Positions 46,441-61,100 of a DNA stretch of 64,000 bases are shown here, piece after piece. The notes below the pieces were generated by a model. That model made no database searches, had not been told where the DNA came from, and worked only from the letters and a program-made list of their open reading frames with translations. Location of the stretch: assembly GCA_964016885.1 (NCBI GenBank), contig OZ024741.1, positions 185,876,001 through 185,940,000 of the forward strand, given 5' to 3'. This DNA is from Eledone cirrhosa (taxonomy: Eukaryota). A program made the translations under genes and the position numbers. Numbering within the stretch: position 1 is the stretch's first letter; every line of letters begins with the position of its first letter.

Positions 46441-46615
46441 CATATATAGGTTAAAATAACAGATTAAAATTTAAGCAAAGAATCGTTGCTTTCACCCTTT
46501 ACGGGATCTTCTGAAACTAAAAACATCAATCTGTGAACGCAGAAGTAAATATTTCGAAAAATGTTGCAACCGAAGGAAAACAGGAAGATGATACTTTGGT
46601 TCGTGAAGACGTTCC

Positions 46616-49886: not shown

Positions 49887-50281
<395 letters not shown>

Positions 50282-50438
50282 AAAGAATAGAGATGTAACA
50301 CACAAGTTATTATATATTGGTAAACGGAATAGAAAATGCTGACAAATTGTTCACAGTTGAAAAATGGTTTAATTAGGAATAAAAGAGTATTAGTGATTGT
50401 ATGGGTTAGTATTCAGTTGTGGTTTTAAGTTTTTAAGT

Positions 50439-50475
50439 TTTTACCGGTTGCGCATTTCTAAATGCTTTTCAAAAA
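50439..50475 (-). ncRNA. Variant minimal hammerhead motif in 3' pseudo-LTR
   Basis: Minus strand TTT-TTGAAAA-GCATT-TAGA-AATGC-GCA-ACCGGT-A-AAA: U3-A8 core, GCAA in place of GAAA, palindromic ACCGGT. Confidence 0.55.
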
Positions 50476-50796
50476 TAATTTTGAGATAGAGTGTCCGTGC
50501 TCTTTGCTCTGATCTGATTAGTTTTGGGAATTCTACCTGTTTTTATGTTAAAAAAATGGCTCCAGCGTTATTTTTGTGTTGCAAAAATGCTTGTGGTCAA
50601 AACAATTTTGATTGGTCGGTAGAGGTCATGTGAATGTAAAAAGTTGATTTTGCGCCAAGACTGTTTTTATGTTAAAATGTTAGAAAAGTGGCTCCAGCAA
50701 AAATTATGGTCAAAACAATTTTGATTGGTCGGTAGAGGTCATGTGGATAAAAAATTGGTTTTGCGCCAAGATTGAGAAATGACTCTTTCACAACAA

Positions 50797-50852
<56 letters not shown>

Positions 50853-51243
50853 TAGTAGTAGGAAGGTGTTCGATGCTGCGACAATAGCCACCAGCGATGT
50901 GTGTCAAATGGCTATTAAGATAAGTGTGTGTGTGTGTGTGTGTGTGTGCGTACATACACACAGCAGAGTCATTCGAAGGTCAAAAGATATTTTTCAGCTT
51001 TTGTCTTATACGGAGAAGTGCGTGTGTGTGTGTGTGTGTGTATAAGTCTCTTTGTATGTTGATGTACGCGTGTGTATGTGTTTGTGTATATATGTGTGTG
51101 TGTGTGTGTGTGCGTGTGTGGGTGGACCAGTATTTTTTCCCCCCTGGTAAAATGGTGTACATTATTCGATTTTTTCAGTAAAATCGGTTCTCTTAATAGA
51201 ACATCAACAATCTTAACAATAAAAGGTGTGAAATGATATTCAC

Positions 51244-51466: not shown

Positions 51467-53790
51467 TTAGGGAGAAGTGTTTAGACGGGGTCCGTATTTG
51501 TTAATGAAGTAAGATTCCTTGCTGATGCGCTGGGTGTGGGTGGCATTATCTTTAAATTTGTAGAGGGGAAAGATTCTGAAGTTGGGATGATTTTGGGCGG
51601 CGCAGGTATCAATGTGTTCACTCAGTGGTATTTTCCTGTATTCCCGTATTTTAATTTGGGATCTATGGACAGTCATGCGTTGGCGGAGGCTGTTTTGGTC
51701 TGGCCTATGTATTGTTCTCGACAACCTGAACAAGTTAATACATATATTAAATTTTCCGATGCACATGTGAAATTGTGTTTTACTATAAAACGTTGTCCAT
51801 CTTTGAAATAGAATTCCGAACCCTCTATTAGGTTGATGCAAATGCCACAGTTGGGTCTATCGCATTTTTTTACTGTGGGTTTCGTTGTTGTGGTTGGCAG
51901 TACTTTGGCATGTGTTAAGATGTTTTTCATTGACTTGGATTGTCTTTTGCTCTTTATGATATCGTGTGTTCGTAGAATTTGGTTCATTCTATGGTCCTTT
52001 TTCAATACAGGGATGTTCTGGAGGATGGTGTCAAAGGCCTCGTTGTTGAGGGGGTTGTGTGTGGAGATGTATGGAAGAGCTTTTAGTTTTGGTTGATTTA
52101 CTTTAGGGTGTCTAAGGTCCTGGGTACTGAGTTTTAGGGCACGTTGGATTCCATTGTCAATTAGTGATGCAGGGTAGTCCCTGCCTATGAGTGTGTCCTT
52201 TAGTTCTTGTAGCCGTAAGTAGCAGATGTTTTTATTGGAGACTATAGTACAGATTCTCTTGGCTAAGTTGTAGGGAATATTAATTTTAACGTGTCTAGGG
52301 TGGCAAGAGTTGAAGGGGAGGTATTGCTTGGAGTCTGTGGGCTTGTAGTATATGTCGGTTTCTATTTTTTTGTTATGGATCTTAATGAGGATGTCGAGGA
52401 AGGGGAGTTGTTGATGGCTGTATTCCATCGTGAAGTTAATATTTGTGTTGAGCCCATTTATAAGGGTGTGAAATTCTTTAAGTTTTTCGATGTTTTCGTG
52501 CCAAAGGATGAAGCAGTCATCAAGATATCGCTTCCAGTTCCTTTCAATGTGTAAGTGGAGGGTGTTTCCAAATTTGTTTAGGACTTTAGTGTAGAGGGTG
52601 ATTTCCAGGTATCCCATGACTAGGTTGGCATACGTAGGGGCTGTTTTCGTTCCCATAGCGGTCCTAGATTTCTGCCTGTAGGGTTTGTTATTGAAAACGA
52701 AGTAATTGTTCTCCAAGATAAATTTGAGTCCCTCTATCACGAATTCTTTTTTGATGCGTTGTGGGAGTTCATTGTGGAAGTTATCCAGCCAGAATTGGAT
52801 AGCTTCTATTCCTAGGTTGTGGGGGATGTTGGAGTATAGGTTGACTACATCGAACGTCACTAGTAGGGTTTGTTCAGAAAGTGGCATATTAGGGAGGTGA
52901 TTGAGCATATCTAGGTCGTCCCTTATATAGCTTTTGATGTGCTTGAGGAAGGGTTTGAGAAGGGTATCAATGAAGTTGCTAAGACGGTGCGTTTCGCAAG
53001 CGGGGCCTGCTATTATAGGTCTTAATTTGAGATCATTGGGTGAGGGGACATTGATGACTATGTCTGTGGCTTCCTTGCATGCCTTACTCATTGATTCGCT
53101 TTTATGTACTTTAGGGATACCGTAGAAAAGGCTGGATTTACTTGTGAAGTCTGTGATGAAGCTGAATTCCTTGTTAGTGAGTCCTTCTTTGTATTGGTTG
53201 ATTAGAGTTTTTAGGTTTCTCATAATTTTCTGTTGATTGTAGTGTTCAGCCTTTTCGTAGTATGTTTCGTTTTCCAAAGTGGAGAGCGCTAAGTTGATAT
53301 AGAATTCTGTCTCCATTAGGACTACTGTACTCCCTTTATCAGCCTCTTTAATTGTAATGGTTCTGTCGGTTTTTAATCTATTTAATTCTTCCCATTCTTT
53401 CTTGTTGAGGTTTGGCTTGTGTTTTTGTCTGTGCAAGTGTTGGTAAGGGAAGTTTGTGATGTGTTCACAGAATTCGTCCAGGATTTTATTTCTACCTTTT
53501 GAAGGGGTGTAATTGCTTCTATTTCTGGCTAATGATTCATCCTCATTGTACTGGTCGAATAGTTGTTCACTAAGTCGTAACTTTCTACAGAAGTCTGTGA
53601 TGTCTTCCTTCATTTCATAGTAGTTAGGACGTAGTGGGGTCGGTGTGAATTTAAGACCTTTGGAGAGTAAGTTGATAAGGTTGGGTGTTGGTTCTGCACT
53701 AGTAAGATTGATAATTTTTATTACTATCGGTTTCTCCTCCCTGTCTTGTGTTATTTTGTTTGCCTGTATCTGTGTGCTGTGTCTAAAAAA
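51467..53790 (-). CDS. PLE RT plus GIY-YIG endonuclease. Frame open from 53790, first Met 53613; one 1-nt deletion near 51695.
   Basis: IINLT..LLSKGLKFTPTP, KEADKG, LRPII, TFDVVNLYSNI, AMGT..APTYANL, RYLDD, LPFLD, CDRPNCGIC, LIYVLTCSGCREQYIGQT; C-terminus (LRQRMTVH..SEHIDTC..KE..LN) lies in the shifted frame. Confidence 0.92.
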
Positions 53791-55061
53791 TGGTTGGGGT
53801 AGAGGGGTTGTCTGCTGATGTTAAGTGGTCTCCTGTGTTTGTTATATTCCTTGTTGTTGTAAAATGTGGTTCGGGTTGGTGGTTGTAGATTGAATGGGGT
53901 GTTCCTGTACTGCGAGTATGGGTGTGTGTTTCTATGTGCCATGTTGTATTGTGGTGTTATAAGTGGCCTACGTTGTTGGTTGTATCGTGTGGTGTGGGTT
54001 TGTTGTGTATTGTGGAAGTGAGAGTTGAGAAAATGGTAATTACCTTGCTGTCCCCTTGAGGCGGGGAAGTTGTTGCATCTATCATGGCGGTGGTATCTTT
54101 TCCCTATGTTTGACGATGAGGAATCCGCGTAGTAGTTGAGTGATTTGGTATGGTGTCTCCTTGAAGGGGGAAAGTTGTAAATGTCATTCTGGGGGAGATG
54201 ATTTCTTGGGTTTTTGTTCCTTCTTATGGTAGCGAGGTTGGGAAGTTCATCTTCGGTGTGGTGCTTCCTTCTTCGTTTGTTTGAGGCTTGGGGGTTTGAG
54301 AAGTTGTTGTGCGGTTCAGTTATGGGTTTTCCTATTTTTATGAACGGGTTATTGGAGGTGTAATCCGTTTGAAAAGTCGATTCATAGTGTAGGAACCAAG
54401 CGGCACTTTTTTCCCAGCGTTGAAGGGATTTCAGTTCTTCTCTGTTGCAGTCCCCTTTCCATAATTTGGAGATCTTCTCTACCTTGGGGCCTTCAGTTTT
54501 GTTGTTGATTTCCAGGAGGATCTCTTCATCGATGGTTTTGATTTTTTCCTCATTTGTCTGGGCCCTCAGTTTAAGAAGTTCAATTTCTGTCTTCATTTTT
54601 TCCAATGCCATTCTTTCCCTAAGGTGTCTTTGAGGTTCGGGTTCATTTGGAATGGACTTTATTTGTAGTTTACGGGGGAGAGTTAGAGGGGTTGAGTTAA
54701 GCCATTTTTCATATATCTCTGCTTTGTTGTGATTTTGTATCATCTTCCAGAATGAGAACTTTCTGTCTCTGAGGGATTTGTTCCATTTTGGAATTGTTCG
54801 AATTTTCATTTTGTGTGAATCAATCTCACATGGTTCTTCGTTGGTTTTTCCTGGGTTGGTAGTAGTGAACATAGTTTGGATAGTATCGCAAAGGTTTTGG
54901 AGTTTGTCGCCGATTTCGGAGGGTTTGTATCCGGTGGCGGTTTCCTTATTTGTGGAGTCAAGTTTGTCGACCAGCAAAGATAGGTTGGTGTTGATTTTCT
55001 TGAGTTCCTGTAGGATCTCTTCATTTGAGTTGATGAGGGTTGTATCCGTTTTTGTTGGCAT
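53751..55061 (-). CDS. PLE upstream ORF (436 aa from first ATG): predicted coiled-coil N-half, low-complexity basic N/Q/H/R-rich C-half
   Basis: Uninterrupted ORF between the pseudo-LTR and RT; heptad-like EEILQELKKINTNLSLLVDKL and MALEKMKTEIELLKLRAQTNEEKIKTIDEEI; basic KRRRKHH. Confidence 0.8.
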   Translation of the reverse strand: MPTKTDTTLINSNEEILQELKKINTNLSLLVDKLDSTNKETATGYKPSEIGDKLQNLCDTIQTMFTTTNPGKTNEEPCEIDSHKMKIRTIPKWNKSLRDRKFSFWKMIQNHNKAEIYEKWLNSTPLTLPRKLQIKSIPNEPEPQRHLRERMALEKMKTEIELLKLRAQTNEEKIKTIDEEILLEINNKTEGPKVEKISKLWKGDCNREELKSLQRWEKSAAWFLHYESTFQTDYTSNNPFIKIGKPITEPHNNFSNPQASNKRRRKHHTEDELPNLATIRRNKNPRNHLPQNDIYNFPPSRRHHTKSLNYYADSSSSNIGKRYHRHDRCNNFPASRGQQGNYHFLNSHFHNTQQTHTTRYNQQRRPLITPQYNMAHRNTHPYSQYRNTPFNLQPPTRTTFYNNKEYNKHRRPLNISRQPLYPNHFLDTAHRYRQTK

Positions 55062-55250
55062 TTTCTGTATCTCGTGTGAGGATATGATAGTTAAAAGAAT
55101 AGAGGTGTAACACACAAGTTATTATATATTGGTAAATGGAATAGAAAATGCTGACAAATTGTTCACAGTTGAAAAATGGTTTAATTAGGAATAAAAGAGT
55201 ATTAGTGATTGTATGGGTTAGTATTCAGTTGTGGTTTTAAGTTTTTAAGT

Positions 55251-55287
55251 TTTTACCGGTTGCGCATTTCTAAATGCTTTTCAAAAA
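55251..55287 (-). ncRNA. Variant minimal hammerhead motif in 5' pseudo-LTR
   Basis: Identical to 50439-50475, 4812 nt away and ~190 nt upstream of the ORF1 ATG. Confidence 0.55.
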
Positions 55288-55608
55288 TAATTTTGAGATA
55301 GAGTGTCCGTGCTGTTTGCTCTGATCTGATTAGTTTTGGGAATTCTACCTGTTTTTATGTTAAAAAAATGGCTCCAGCGTTATTTTTGTGTTGCAAAAAT
55401 GCTTGTGGTCAAAACAATTTTGATTGGTCGGTAGCGGTCATGTGAATGTAAAAAGTTGATTTTGCGCCAAGACTGTTTTTATGTTAAAATGTTAGAAAAG
55501 TGGCTCCAGCAAAAATTATGGTCAAAACAATTTTGATTGGTCGGTAGAGGTCATGTGGATAAAAAATTGGTTTTGCGCCAAGATTGAGAAATGACTCTTT
55601 CACAACAA

Positions 55609-55682
<74 letters not shown>

Positions 55683-55749
55683 TAGTAGTAGTAAGGTGTT
55701 CGATGCTGCGACAATAGCCACCAGCGATGTGTGTCAAATGGCTATTAAG

Positions 55750-55787
<38 letters not shown>

Positions 55788-56018
55788 ACATACACACAGC
55801 AGAGTCATTCGAAGGTCAAAAGATATTTTTCAGCTTTTGTCTTATACGGAGAAGTGCGTGTGTGTGTGTGTGTGTGTTTGTATAAGTTTCTTTGTATGTT
55901 GATGTACGCGTGTGTATGTGTTTGTGTATATATGTGTGTGTGTGTGTGTGTGCGTGTGTGGGTGGACCAGTATTTTTTTCCCCCCTGGTAAAATGGTGTA
56001 CATTATTCGATTTTTTCA

Positions 56019-56074
<56 letters not shown>

Positions 56075-57493: not shown

Positions 57494-57840
57494 TTTACCT
57501 GTTCCAGCCAACCGGCTGATGTCATGCTGGAGTACCGCCCTTGTTGCTACACGTTCTATCTCCAGCCTGTGTTGACTGGCCATTGGTGTAAGAGGGAGTT
57601 CGTTGCTGGTGCCCTTAGGTTACCTTTATAACGTGCTGTGGGCTCATCCGAGATCCTGGATAGCAGGGTGTCAATATGTTTCTTGAAAACATCCACGTCC
57701 ACACTGTGCAGATCTCTCGAATTTCTTGGTAGCTTGTTGAAGAATTGAGGGCCTTTGAACCTCAGGCTATTGCAATATCTGCCACTTATTCTAGATGTGA
57801 AATACGGCGCCTTTGGCACCACACAGTAACGTCATGTTCG
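57494..57840 (-). mobile_element. 3' fragment of the same CR1/L2-group LINE as 1863-4293
   Basis: RDLHSVDVDVFKKHIDTLLSRI.DEPTAR..NLRA.ATNSLL matches ORF 3929-4240. Confidence 0.9.
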
Positions 57841-58194
57841 GTAATATTCATTTCGATGATTTAACGGAATGAGTAATTGTGTGTATCGAATCTATTAATA
57901 TGGGGAAAAGACCAACGCCTATGACCAAAACAATGCTCACAATACTGGAGAGACAAAGGGATATACTCTGTTAAAAGCATCGTAAATGGTGGGTGCAATG
58001 TTAAGTTAGTTTTAATTAATGTTAAGTTAGTTTTAATTAATTATTAATAATAATGAACCCTAAATAATTAAAACTGCATTCTCCGACATAATAGAATTGA
58101 TGGCTGTTATTAAACACACACAGATGCAATTATAACAACAACAACGATAGTAATAAGCATACTAATACTACTAGTAAGTATAACGATAATAGTT

Positions 58195-61100
58195 TCATTT
58201 ATTGGCCAGAAGGGCCGACATATGGAGGCCAATATTATAGACGGGTACAGTGGGGTTTATACACAACAATCGATTAAAAGATATGAAAACAATAACCATC
58301 AAGAAGAAAAATTCAGACAACAGAATACGCCAATATGGAGGGGGATAACCACCCAGAGTTGACTCAGGTACACCACCAATCCTGAACCACACGACGCTTC
58401 GAGGGCACTCGTGAAGGGCACCTCTCTCGTCCTCAAATGCAACAGCCTACAGGGGCCTGTTCAGCGTAGGCCCACTCTAACGGGCCATTCTTGCCACATT
58501 CACACACCTTTTCTGTACTTACAGCACTTCTCTCTCCACCCTCACCTTTCTTTCAAAGTAAAACTTGAAAAAGTTGATGAGGGATTGGCTGAAGAGAAAA
58601 GTTTTTGCCTTTAGTCCTTTCAACCTGGTCCACCATACAACTTCTTTGGCTACTGCCAGCAGCCCGACGAAAAATACCTGCACTTCCCGATCAAAATAAG
58701 GCGGCAGATCGATTTTCACTATTTACTCGGTCAATAGCCAGACCCGCCCTACCCGCGACAACAGCTGTTAGACATAATTCCACAAGCCAGAAATGCATGG
58801 TCACTGGACAAGTGCGTGCAGAACAGTTTCGTCGCTCTGCGCACATCTCGGGCAGGTTCACCTGACAACAGTGTCGTGCCTGTAAAGTTTTCTCGAACCG
58901 AAAGTGCTGCAAGTAGCACTGCCAAGCCAGCAATTTCTGGAAGTTATCCATAGTTCCCGACTTGAAAGTTTTCCGGAACAGACTGGTCAGTTCGACTTCA
59001 TCAACGCCCAGAGCTTCTCCGAATGCGCACTTGCCCACTACTAATCACCTATAGAACTCAAGAGTATAAGTTCTACTGACCATATTGCCCGCCTGGTAGA
59101 AAACAATGAGCGCCTGGGAAAAATCCAGTCTATGTCTCTTCTTGACCCAAGACTGCAGCTCATTCAAAGAGACAAGCTTCAAAAAGGTCTGTCCACATCT
59201 GTTCACCTCTTAGGCAGAACATCTGGAGATGCCTCAGCGCTTGTTTGCACATCATTAGCCACGGCAATCCCAGCCATACATGTAGATGTTGCTGGCAGCA
59301 GATGGACCGCCTTACCACTGGAACATGTCTCTTTCACAAGAATTTAAAAAGTAGCCAGTCCAATTTCGTGAGACGCCAACGGAAGCAAGGCACGGCAGTC
59401 AGGCGTTAGTTGTTGACGCGATGTCCGTGTTCACCACCTTTGCCAGACTTTTCAAGAACAGCTTCCACTCAGCTCACTTCTGGGTGAGAGTGACTACCCT
59501 GTTTCTTAACCTCGTCCCAATTCTATTCTACCTGGAGGTCTGGTTAAAATCAAATCCGGAGCTACTTTACCGTTTTGGCCGTCCAGCGTCCGACGACGCT
59601 GTTGAAAGGGATGGACCTTTCTCTCCAGGTGCCGAGCTGCAAGCTCATCGACTTTTCAGTGTTTAGATTTTCTCCCGTCAACCTTTGATGTTCCTCCAAG
59701 AAGATGCCGCCCACCTCAATTTCCCAGGTGTTCGATATAATCATGATTATGTCGTCCACTTATGCGGACACAGCCTTTCAACGTCCAAGTTCGAGTGGGA
59801 TGCCTTGCAACAGCTCCAGCTTCCACAGTATAGTCTCGATAGTCAATACGTATGGAAGGGCGGAGAGAGGGCACCCTTGGCGGACCGATCAGGAGATTTG
59901 AAACGGTCCCGAAAGATGTCCATTAACTTTTGACCACCAAGCACAATCCACTGTGCATTGCAGTGATCCAGCTGGACCGAAGCTGGTTGATTTTGCCTCC
60001 AAGTAACAATGGCCAACCCAATTGAAAACTGTCGATTGATCTAAATTGACAAGATCCTCACCGAAGCCAGGTTTACAGCAAACACTCCCTATGATATACC
60101 GTAAGTGGTGGAGGTTATCGTGTATGGACCTGGTCGGAATTGCACTTCCCCTAACAAATCCTCGATGACGAGCGCCAATCTTTTCGCTAGAACCTTGGCC
60201 AAAATCTTAAACTCTGTGTGGGGCAGGGTTATGGGCCTGAAGTTATCTAATGCATCTCTCTTGTTCTCGTTTTTCCTTAGAATCACTACTCCCCGGCTCA
60301 CAGAACTGGGAATACTCACGTTGTTGTGGGAGTTGTAATAGAGATCTTCGATCAGATCGGAGAACACGTCTGGCATATTTACGTAAAACACGTCTGGCAG
60401 ACCATCCGAACCGGGTCACTTGCGCCTCGTGTAGGTGACTAGGGCATCCCGAATCTCAGCTGAAATTATCAGGCTTTCGCAGCATCGGACGGCGAGAGAT
60501 AAGGTAGGCCGTCGTGATAGGAACACAATACGACACCGTCACAGGACTCTCCCCTCCCCCCGAACAGCCGAGCAAAGTGCTGGCGAATGACCTCACAACT
60601 CTGCCTGGAATCGTTTCGCTCGCGTTCCTCACATTGTTTTGTTACCACGCTGCTCCTCTACCACGCGGGCCCATCGAATAGCTTTGGTTCCCCCTTTCTT
60701 AGAGCACGCGCTTTTCTTCTGACAATGCAACCTTCGTGTTTCCTATTAAAGAAATGGTCTAATGCCATTCTCGACTCTAGCACCTCATTTTCATTTACAA
60801 TGCCACTCTAAATAGCCTCGTCTAATTTAGATACCAACTCCCACTCCTTTCTATTTTTGTCTAACGCTACTACTTTGCTAAAGCCTATCGACATTACTCT
60901 AATCTCTCTTTTGACAGCCTCCCATCACATATTGTTGACAAGATTCCTGTCAACGTTTGCTTAACTAAGTTGTTGACTCGGTCCCTGTAAGCCTTACGTG
61001 TCGTAAACGTCATGTTCCGCTTCCAGTAACCAGGTCCTAACTTGCGTTTCTTATCTAGCTCGACCTTATAGATCACAAACTTGTGATCTGATTAGGCAGC

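Follow-up and report, generated by a model that had tools for sequence, protein, structure and literature searches.

We studied a 64,000-nt stretch of the Eledone cirrhosa genome (GCA_964016885.1, contig OZ024741.1, positions 185,876,001-185,940,000), here called the window and cited by its own coordinates, and a Penelope-like element (PLE) within it. Our results showed that the element is a young, high-copy Penelope-like retrotransposon whose reverse transcriptase (RT)-endonuclease (EN) is encoded in the -1 frame behind a first open reading frame (ORF1) predicted to be helical. This two-ORF arrangement is family-wide and deeply conserved. Judging from the sequences, the RT-EN is likely made as an ORF1-RT-EN fusion by programmed -1 ribosomal frameshifting at a U UUU UUA heptamer. 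The nature of the stimulator is a more tentative matter: we give a paused leading ribosome slightly less than an even chance of being responsible.

Two ORFs in a -1 offset

The element lies on the minus strand and is laid out as follows:

55082..56021, minus strand: 5′ pseudo-long terminal repeat (pLTR), a direct repeat 96% identical to 50271-51180 (7 mismatches), flanked by (TA)n
53751..55061, minus strand: ORF1, 436 aa, from the ATG at 55061 to the TAA at 53753-53751, ending in NHFLDTAHRYRQTK before the stop
54038..54043, minus strand: strong splice-donor-like site, the sole one upstream of the junction, in phase 1 (the AG at 53783 is in phase 2)
53784..53790, minus strand: slippery heptamer U UUU UUA in the ORF1 register (H-F-L), followed by G
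53751..53753, minus strand: ORF1 stop UAA(C), candidate pause site of a leading ribosome
51673..53820, minus strand: -1-frame ORF2, with 715 aa between stops here and 784 aa in intact copies
51467..51700, minus strand: remaining GIY-YIG endonuclease, out of frame in the window copy through a one-base loss near 51696
50271..51180, minus strand: 3′ pLTR, a direct repeat terminating in (TA)n

The codons at the junction read CAT TTT TTA GAC, which places TTTTTTA (53790-53784) in the X XXY YYZ register; exactly 10 sense codons separate it from the ORF1 stop. Starting at 53820, which is 10 codons upstream of the heptamer, the -1 frame stays open through IINL..LLSKGLKFTPTP, DKG, and RT. The motif IINL..LSKGLKFTP is encoded in this frame before its first Met, which stands at 53613, 59 codons past the slip site; there is no early AUG. 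The original prediction, which had proposed a -1 frameshift here, gave the same register, the same distance to the stop, and the same position of the IINL motif upstream of the first Met, and both coordinates and frames were verified. It had also equated the heptamer with the slip site of HIV-1 gag-pol, and the two are indeed identical, down to the following G (PMC5009743).

ORF2 contains N motifs, DKG, RT, thumb, a CX4CxxC linker, and the start of the GIY-YIG domain. The linker before the EN, CDRPNCGIC, fits CX2-5CxxC, and the LIYVLTCSGCREQYIGQT..H..H of the GIY-YIG endonuclease (CCHH motif) can be read from the window sequence. The window copy is not intact, as a private one-base loss at about 51696 breaks GIY-YIG and ORF2; the extra base was present in all 19 covering copies of the 20 fetched. 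In an intact copy (L067), Pfam RVT_1 and GIY-YIG both exceeded the cut-off.

The offset is the normal state of the family

Exact counts of a 33-nt pattern in the 3.0-Gb genome gave 341 copies with T6, 5 with T7, and 9 with T5. A majority of T7 copies was the outcome that the original prediction had named as speaking against it, and the count fell the other way. The copies are spread across many contigs, with partial tandems and inversions among them, and 36 of 40 scored DNA matches were full-length at the top score, a sample biased to the query. Both ORFs were whole and in the -1 offset in 6 of 20 hand-picked copies (455-456 and 784 aa, stop to stop). A tally of 76 loci put 57 in the window's offset, but it includes duplicates and carries no weight here. 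Of 150 protein matches one alone had a fused frame (L066), owing to the gain of one base, private to that copy, just upstream of the site. The fused copies seen (L066, L118, and two of the 23 family-6 copies that could be read) are isolated cases in which a homopolymer gained one base.

Contigs from four short-read runs (three samples from two studies, one labelled as a second organism) showed no indel at or above 1% across 53600-53950. Single contigs of X4 and X5 bridge the slip site without gaps, and contig depth in all five runs declines from 3′ to 5′, like the genomic copies. Two ORFs in a -1 offset are thus the normal state of the family.

ORF1 and its relatives

ORF1 is predicted to consist of a long-helix domain (about aa 8-240), with pLDDT above 90 for the helices at about aa 90-240, and a disordered tail rich in N, R, Q, and H. 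It had no Pfam match, Foldseek gave nothing in PDB or BFVD at E ≤ 0.001, and there was no usable Atlas match. A profile search found 732 clusters (50% identity) at E ≤ 1e-3. The named relatives are bivalves (Mytilus, Pinctada, and Saccostrea), and none came from viral contigs or prokaryote genomes.

No fused ORF1-RT protein was found among the best 150 ORF1 matches, the longest of which has 541 aa, or among the best 120 RT matches, the longest of which has 799 aa in a search that allowed lengths to 1372. Among 3825 candidates of 948-2705 aa there were also none, which is weak evidence.

Of the ORF1 proteins of at least 330 aa, 64 of 77 (query included) carry FL in their last 40 aa, compared with 7 of 154 control windows. 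Among 124 ORF1 proteins of at least 200 aa, the tail beyond the core reaches at least 70 aa in 88, of which 73 show F[LF] in the last 45 aa. The residue before the F is encodable by NNT in all 73, whereas 20.8% of tail residues are not. A 74-row alignment, drawn mostly from proteins that carry the motif, has 14 nearly invariant columns, with F425 and L426 among them. An NNT-encodable residue followed by F-L near the ORF1 C-terminus would be the trace of U UUU UUA in a fixed register. In RT relatives a -1 reading of the slip site was found in 0 of 60, a count that says little, as most of the called proteins start downstream of it.

Four PLE RT-EN proteins (P0186, P0221, P0226, and P0242) are deposited under the names of Ca. 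Thiodiazotropha or a Solemya gill symbiont; these deposits are most likely host DNA in the assemblies.

The slip site in other families and in metagenome loci

Searches with distant ORF1 proteins found four further families in this genome (families 2, 3, 4, and 6). A metagenome scan with an 8-row ORF1 subgroup gave four loci (L138-L141), all from that distant subgroup, each with ORF1 followed by a PLE RT or RT-EN. Five families of this genome, as well as L138 and L139 among the metagenome loci, carry T TTT TTA G in the ORF1 register with the -1 frame open into RT. Across the DNA families the -1 frame was open from the site into RT in nine of nine, and it closes 1-20 codons upstream.

Family 2 (about 66-69% nucleotide identity) had both ORFs whole in the -1 offset in 9 of 20 fetched copies and no fused copy. 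The -1 layout was found in three of four displayed copies of family 3, the other (L118) being fused by an extra C. In family 4 the heptamer is present in L123 and L124 and altered in the old copies L127, L128, and L135. Family 6, with 32% ORF1 and 43% RT identity, kept the heptamer in all 23 readable loci of 25; 20 of them had the -1 layout, two were fused by an extra A, and one was broken, the query itself being a fused copy. The register is kept across families at most about 66% identical and across protein clusters below 50% identity, which supports the original reading of a programmed -1 frameshift.

Some relatives count against this reading. Fifteen of the 88 ORF1 relatives with long tails lack the F[LF] motif, although some may be truncated or broken copies. 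Two of the four metagenome loci have degenerate sites (C CCT TTT CAA in L140 and T TTT CTA in L141), each followed by an acceptor-like CAG/G, and P0040 and P0059 read YFRQ at the site. In these degenerate cases (L140, 2880-2900; L141, 540-560; P0040; P0059) F is followed by CTA, CAA, or Arg, while U UUU and a spacing of 12-13 codons are retained. This suggests either slippage of a single P-site tRNA or use of the acceptor-like CAG/G.

Two further observations concern the metagenome subgroup. A hairpin enclosing the slip site can form between an upstream GTCACGCC stretch and a downstream GGCG..GAC (L138, 2085-2150; L139, 1275-1365; L141, 515-560). CACAACTGG and AACCTAGCTGAA, with a constant spacer between them, are conserved in nucleotide sequence in each of the four loci.

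A paused leading ribosome as candidate stimulator

The original prediction had noted no obvious stem-loop downstream of the heptamer, and this held (fold z -0.88, -0.30, and -1.05). Programmed -1 signals can include a stem-loop or pseudoknot 5-9 nt downstream of the heptamer, or long-range pairing. In nine families, 18 folds with z between -2.2 and +1.3 gave no convincing local structure 3′ of the site; pseudoknots lie outside the folding model. The A/C-rich stretch 3′ of the heptamer leaves little to pair, and the first 60 nt in family 4 have a fold energy of 0 kcal/mol. In 11 loci no long-range duplex consistently beat shuffled controls, the best energies across these loci being mostly within the control range. 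The best long-range partner in the window was a (GT)n microsatellite, and long-range pairing was rejected.

The distance from the site to the ORF1 stop is fixed. We counted the slip-site Phe as codon 0, which puts codon 12 at 11 codons beyond the UUA A-site codon. Among 73 ORF1s the Phe-to-stop spacing was 12 in 24, 13-14 in 5, 15-43 in 43, and below 12 in one (P0005, with 7), whereas the off-frame stop density of 7.5% leads to an expectation of about 40 below 12 and about 2.5 at 12. The tails between site and stop are mutually unrelated in sequence.

In the 43 longer tails (spacing of at least 15), Pro and Gly together numbered 15, 15, and 13 at codons 10-12, compared with 1, 6, and 5 at codons 7-9 and 2, 4, and 2 at codons 13-15. 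One of PP, PG, GP, GG, PD, DP, or PN stood at codons 11-12 in 13 of the 43 (shuffle mean 2.4; 0 of 10,000 shuffles as high), and PPx or GGG stood at codons 10-12 in eight (shuffle mean 0.4). Trp was at codon 12 in four, as it is in families 2 and 3; codons 10-15 of family 6 form a Lys/A run. The Trp is placed there by a D-T-R-W-like motif in L089 (about 2395-2410), L121 (about 2885-2900), P0003, P0006, P0007, and P0009; families 2 and 3 differ in this motif only at third positions of ORF1-frame codons.

Stop codons are pause sites that depend on eIF5A, as are Pro, Gly, and charged tripeptides (PMC5499558). Disomes in mouse stack with A-site offsets of 45 or 48 versus 15 nt, that is, 10 or 11 codons (PMC7397865). 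Reporters in E. coli show that the stalling of one ribosome at a UGA stop makes -1 slipping by the trailing ribosome about twofold more frequent, with the largest effect at 9 codons (PMC6815119). Because the codon-12 spacing and the pause motifs match disome spacing, and given the E. coli precedent, we infer that the stimulator is a paused leading ribosome, with a confidence that falls just below even.

Most ribosomes would terminate at the ORF1 stop and release the ORF1 protein, which may serve as an RNA-binding or structural partner in the manner of gag or L1 ORF1. A minority would slip at U UUU UUA and make a fusion of about 1,200 aa, and the size of this minority would set a high ORF1:RT ratio. 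The leading ribosome would pause 11 codons ahead at the ORF1 stop, and the trailing ribosome would collide with it and slip back one base. In other lineages the roadblock at codon 12 may be PPx, GGG, Trp, or poly-Lys instead of the ORF1 stop. That a large, old clade of animal EN-bearing (EN+) PLEs uses ribosome collision, and no RNA structure, to stimulate frameshifting is a wider claim, which we hold a little more tentatively. If true, it would be a natural eukaryotic -1 frameshift set by disome geometry, and RT output would be tied to ribosome load, termination speed, and eIF5A.

Several observations weigh against a collision. All but 3 of the 24 codon-12 stops fall within one 32-row clade that includes the query (quick tree of 71 rows); the starred branches of this tree force at least four spacing changes, and the cases are not independent. 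The stop is at codon 14 in L138 and L139 and at 22, 21, and 33 in families 2, 3, and 6, and its context varies (UAAC, UAAA, UAGA). The stall motifs were tested post hoc and come from about three clades, so that the binomial P values make the cases look more independent than they are. Codons 2 and 4 often encode Gly as well, and the G- or C-rich codons 10-12 could reflect selection on RNA rather than on peptide.

Alternative explanations

A frameshift with no collision is the strongest competitor, and a possible one, although we hold it less probable than a paused leading ribosome. Here U UUU UUA would slip alone at a low level, or an undetected RNA element or protein would stimulate it, and the stop spacing would come from a minimal ORF1 tail, from linker length, or from refolding of an RNA structure. 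A U6A heptamer shifts at a low level with no stimulator. The phylogenetic clustering of the codon-12 spacing and the nucleotide-level motifs shared by L138-L141 3′ of the site also fit this account. The failure to find structure in nine families or a consistent long-range duplex in 11 loci argues against it, and it predicts neither the hard floor at 12 nor the differing pause-type motifs at the same codon. For SARS-CoV-2, where the stop lies can matter for another reason (PMC8168617).

Splicing and reinitiation are both less likely than frameshifting on the sequence evidence. In termination-reinitiation, which we regard as improbable, ORF2 would restart at a near-cognate codon overlapping codon 12, with the U-rich motif as a tether, in the way proposed for L1 ORF2 or stop-restart viruses. 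The -1 frame at codon 12 reads AUA in families 1 and 4 and in L140, GUG in family 2, AUG in family 3, and GUA in L141, and five close RT relatives (P0170-P0173 and P0175) are called as starting 9-11 residues before IINL; a fixed distance from motif to stop also suits a tether. However, a stop or Trp at codon 12 forces NTA or NTG in the -1 frame, which makes these "starts" a by-product, and AUA and GUA are poor start codons. Reinitiation also does not require the -1 frame to be open from the heptamer to codon 12, as it is in nine of nine families, and the slip register is kept in the 43 of 73 ORF1s whose stop is 15-43 codons away.

Splicing would make TTTTTTAG a 3′ splice site, and removal of an intron retained in the genomic copies would bring RT in frame; we consider this improbable as well. 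PLEs do retain introns (PMC8557442). The original prediction had warned of a plausible acceptor, and the sequence is indeed acceptor-like: a pyrimidine-rich YAG stands at the site in seven of nine DNA families and CAG/G in the other two, and a codon starting with G follows FL in 46 of 64 relatives. The warning was weakened on other grounds. An acceptor requires no codon register, yet F-L is in the ORF1 frame in 64 of 77 relatives; an AG is impossible there in 18 of 64; and the acceptor phase differs, being 2 in seven families and 1 in L140 and L141. By donor scores computed with approximate weights, no phase-2 donor of at least 3.5 bits lies within ORF1 in nine families, and the only strong donor upstream of the junction in the window copy is in phase 1. 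With an intron in the 5′ untranslated region, conserved motifs would precede the first AUG, which is 59 codons in.

The caveat that mutation or sequencing error in a T7 run had split a single ORF has negligible probability and was refuted, since the five T7 copies and few fused copies that would fit it stand against the 341 T6 copies, the indel-free independent contigs, the same offset in five families and in distant animals, and the lack of any fused protein among 270 listed relatives. Transcriptional slippage was rejected by reasoning: the T run is short, and slippage of this kind does not need a codon register.

Relation to known elements

Canonical EN+ PLEs are described as single-ORF (PMC8557442) and as such are contrasted with two-ORF EN-deficient elements (PMC6431247). 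This agrees with the original prediction, yet the Figure 1 legend of PMC8557442 already mentions, for some PLE type, an ORF1 that a frameshift with a pseudoknot can set apart. The Eledone element is an EN+ PLE variant and not a canonical member, as it has two ORFs instead of one; it is filed as a variant because two ORFs in a -1 offset are the family norm. The legend's ORF1 with frameshift and pseudoknot is reportedly that of Athena.

With the EN+ PLEs Neptune and Nematis, the element shares a C-terminal GIY-YIG with CxxC between motifs, the CX2-5CxxC linker, DKG and GxKF, direct pLTRs, and (TA)n insertion sites (PMC8557442). These are single-ORF, whereas here RT lies in a different frame from a 350-470 aa ORF1 upstream of it, and ORF2 lacks an early AUG. 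EN-deficient Athena and Coprina share, by likeness of description, a coiled-coil and disordered ORF1 upstream of RT (PMC6431247, PMC13159263), and ORF1 of fungal Coprina consists of a coil plus disorder (PMC13159263). They lack EN and are telomeric; the Eledone family has EN, is found genome-wide, and has no detectable pseudoknot. Chlamys-2/5_cBra of Chara also combines an endonuclease with a separate upstream ORF1 but has an N-terminal EN and a zinc-knuckle, gag-like ORF1, and no frameshift is stated in the available part of its description (PMC8557442).

The HIV-1 frameshift site has a 3′ stem-loop, and none was found in the Eledone element. The two have in common U UUU UUA with the following G and a structural ORF upstream of a polymerase in the -1 frame (PMC5009743). 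The E. coli collision reporters likewise have a heptamer one ribosome-length upstream of a stop and no RNA stimulator, but they are engineered and bacterial, with a 9-codon optimum and an effect of about twofold, whereas the present candidate would be natural, conserved, and eukaryotic, with 11 codons (PMC6815119). In what we found, collision-stimulated -1 frameshifting is shown only in these synthetic reporters.

The available parts of PMC3846280, PMC5408684, PMC5718144, and PMC5009743 contain nothing on frameshifting in EN+ PLEs. Neither an EN+ PLE with programmed frameshifting nor a natural eukaryotic -1 shift programmed by collision turned up in the literature covered; Repbase, Dfam, and subscription papers were outside this scope and could hold such a report.

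The two-ORF layout changes the described anatomy of EN+ PLEs, to which hundreds of Pfam-less ORF1 clusters belong. Annotations of such elements that hold only RT miss the N-terminal part, which bears on transposable element libraries, gene annotation, and functional assays. With frameshifting, PLEs would gain a gag-pol-like expression strategy, and they may offer a large natural series for the standing question of whether eukaryotes can use collisions as programmed stimulators of frameshifting.

Other features of the element and its surroundings

In PLEs the pLTRs can be direct or inverted, and tandem and 5′-truncated insertions occur. The two pLTRs here are direct repeats of about 910-940 nt, the gaps between them lie mainly within microsatellites, and (TA)n abuts both ends of the element. 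Each has an internal duplication of about 50-70 nt with a spacing of 111-113 nt (50591-50774 and 55403-55586). Hammerhead ribozymes in the pLTR are common among PLEs, though not universal. A pattern scan of the element's strands found no hammerhead core, and there was no Rfam match at gathering score; the Rfam matches under that score were driven by microsatellites and were rejected. A minimal hammerhead ribozyme core occurs in the two-ORF relative at L139 (57 and 3756), between tandem units.

Beside the 3′ end of the element is a palindromic sequence resembling a miniature inverted-repeat transposable element (50011-50135), with a related copy 3.6 kb away (46441-46515). Decayed open frames at 57556-60206 on the minus strand resemble, by eye, a retrotransposon of the long interspersed nuclear element type.

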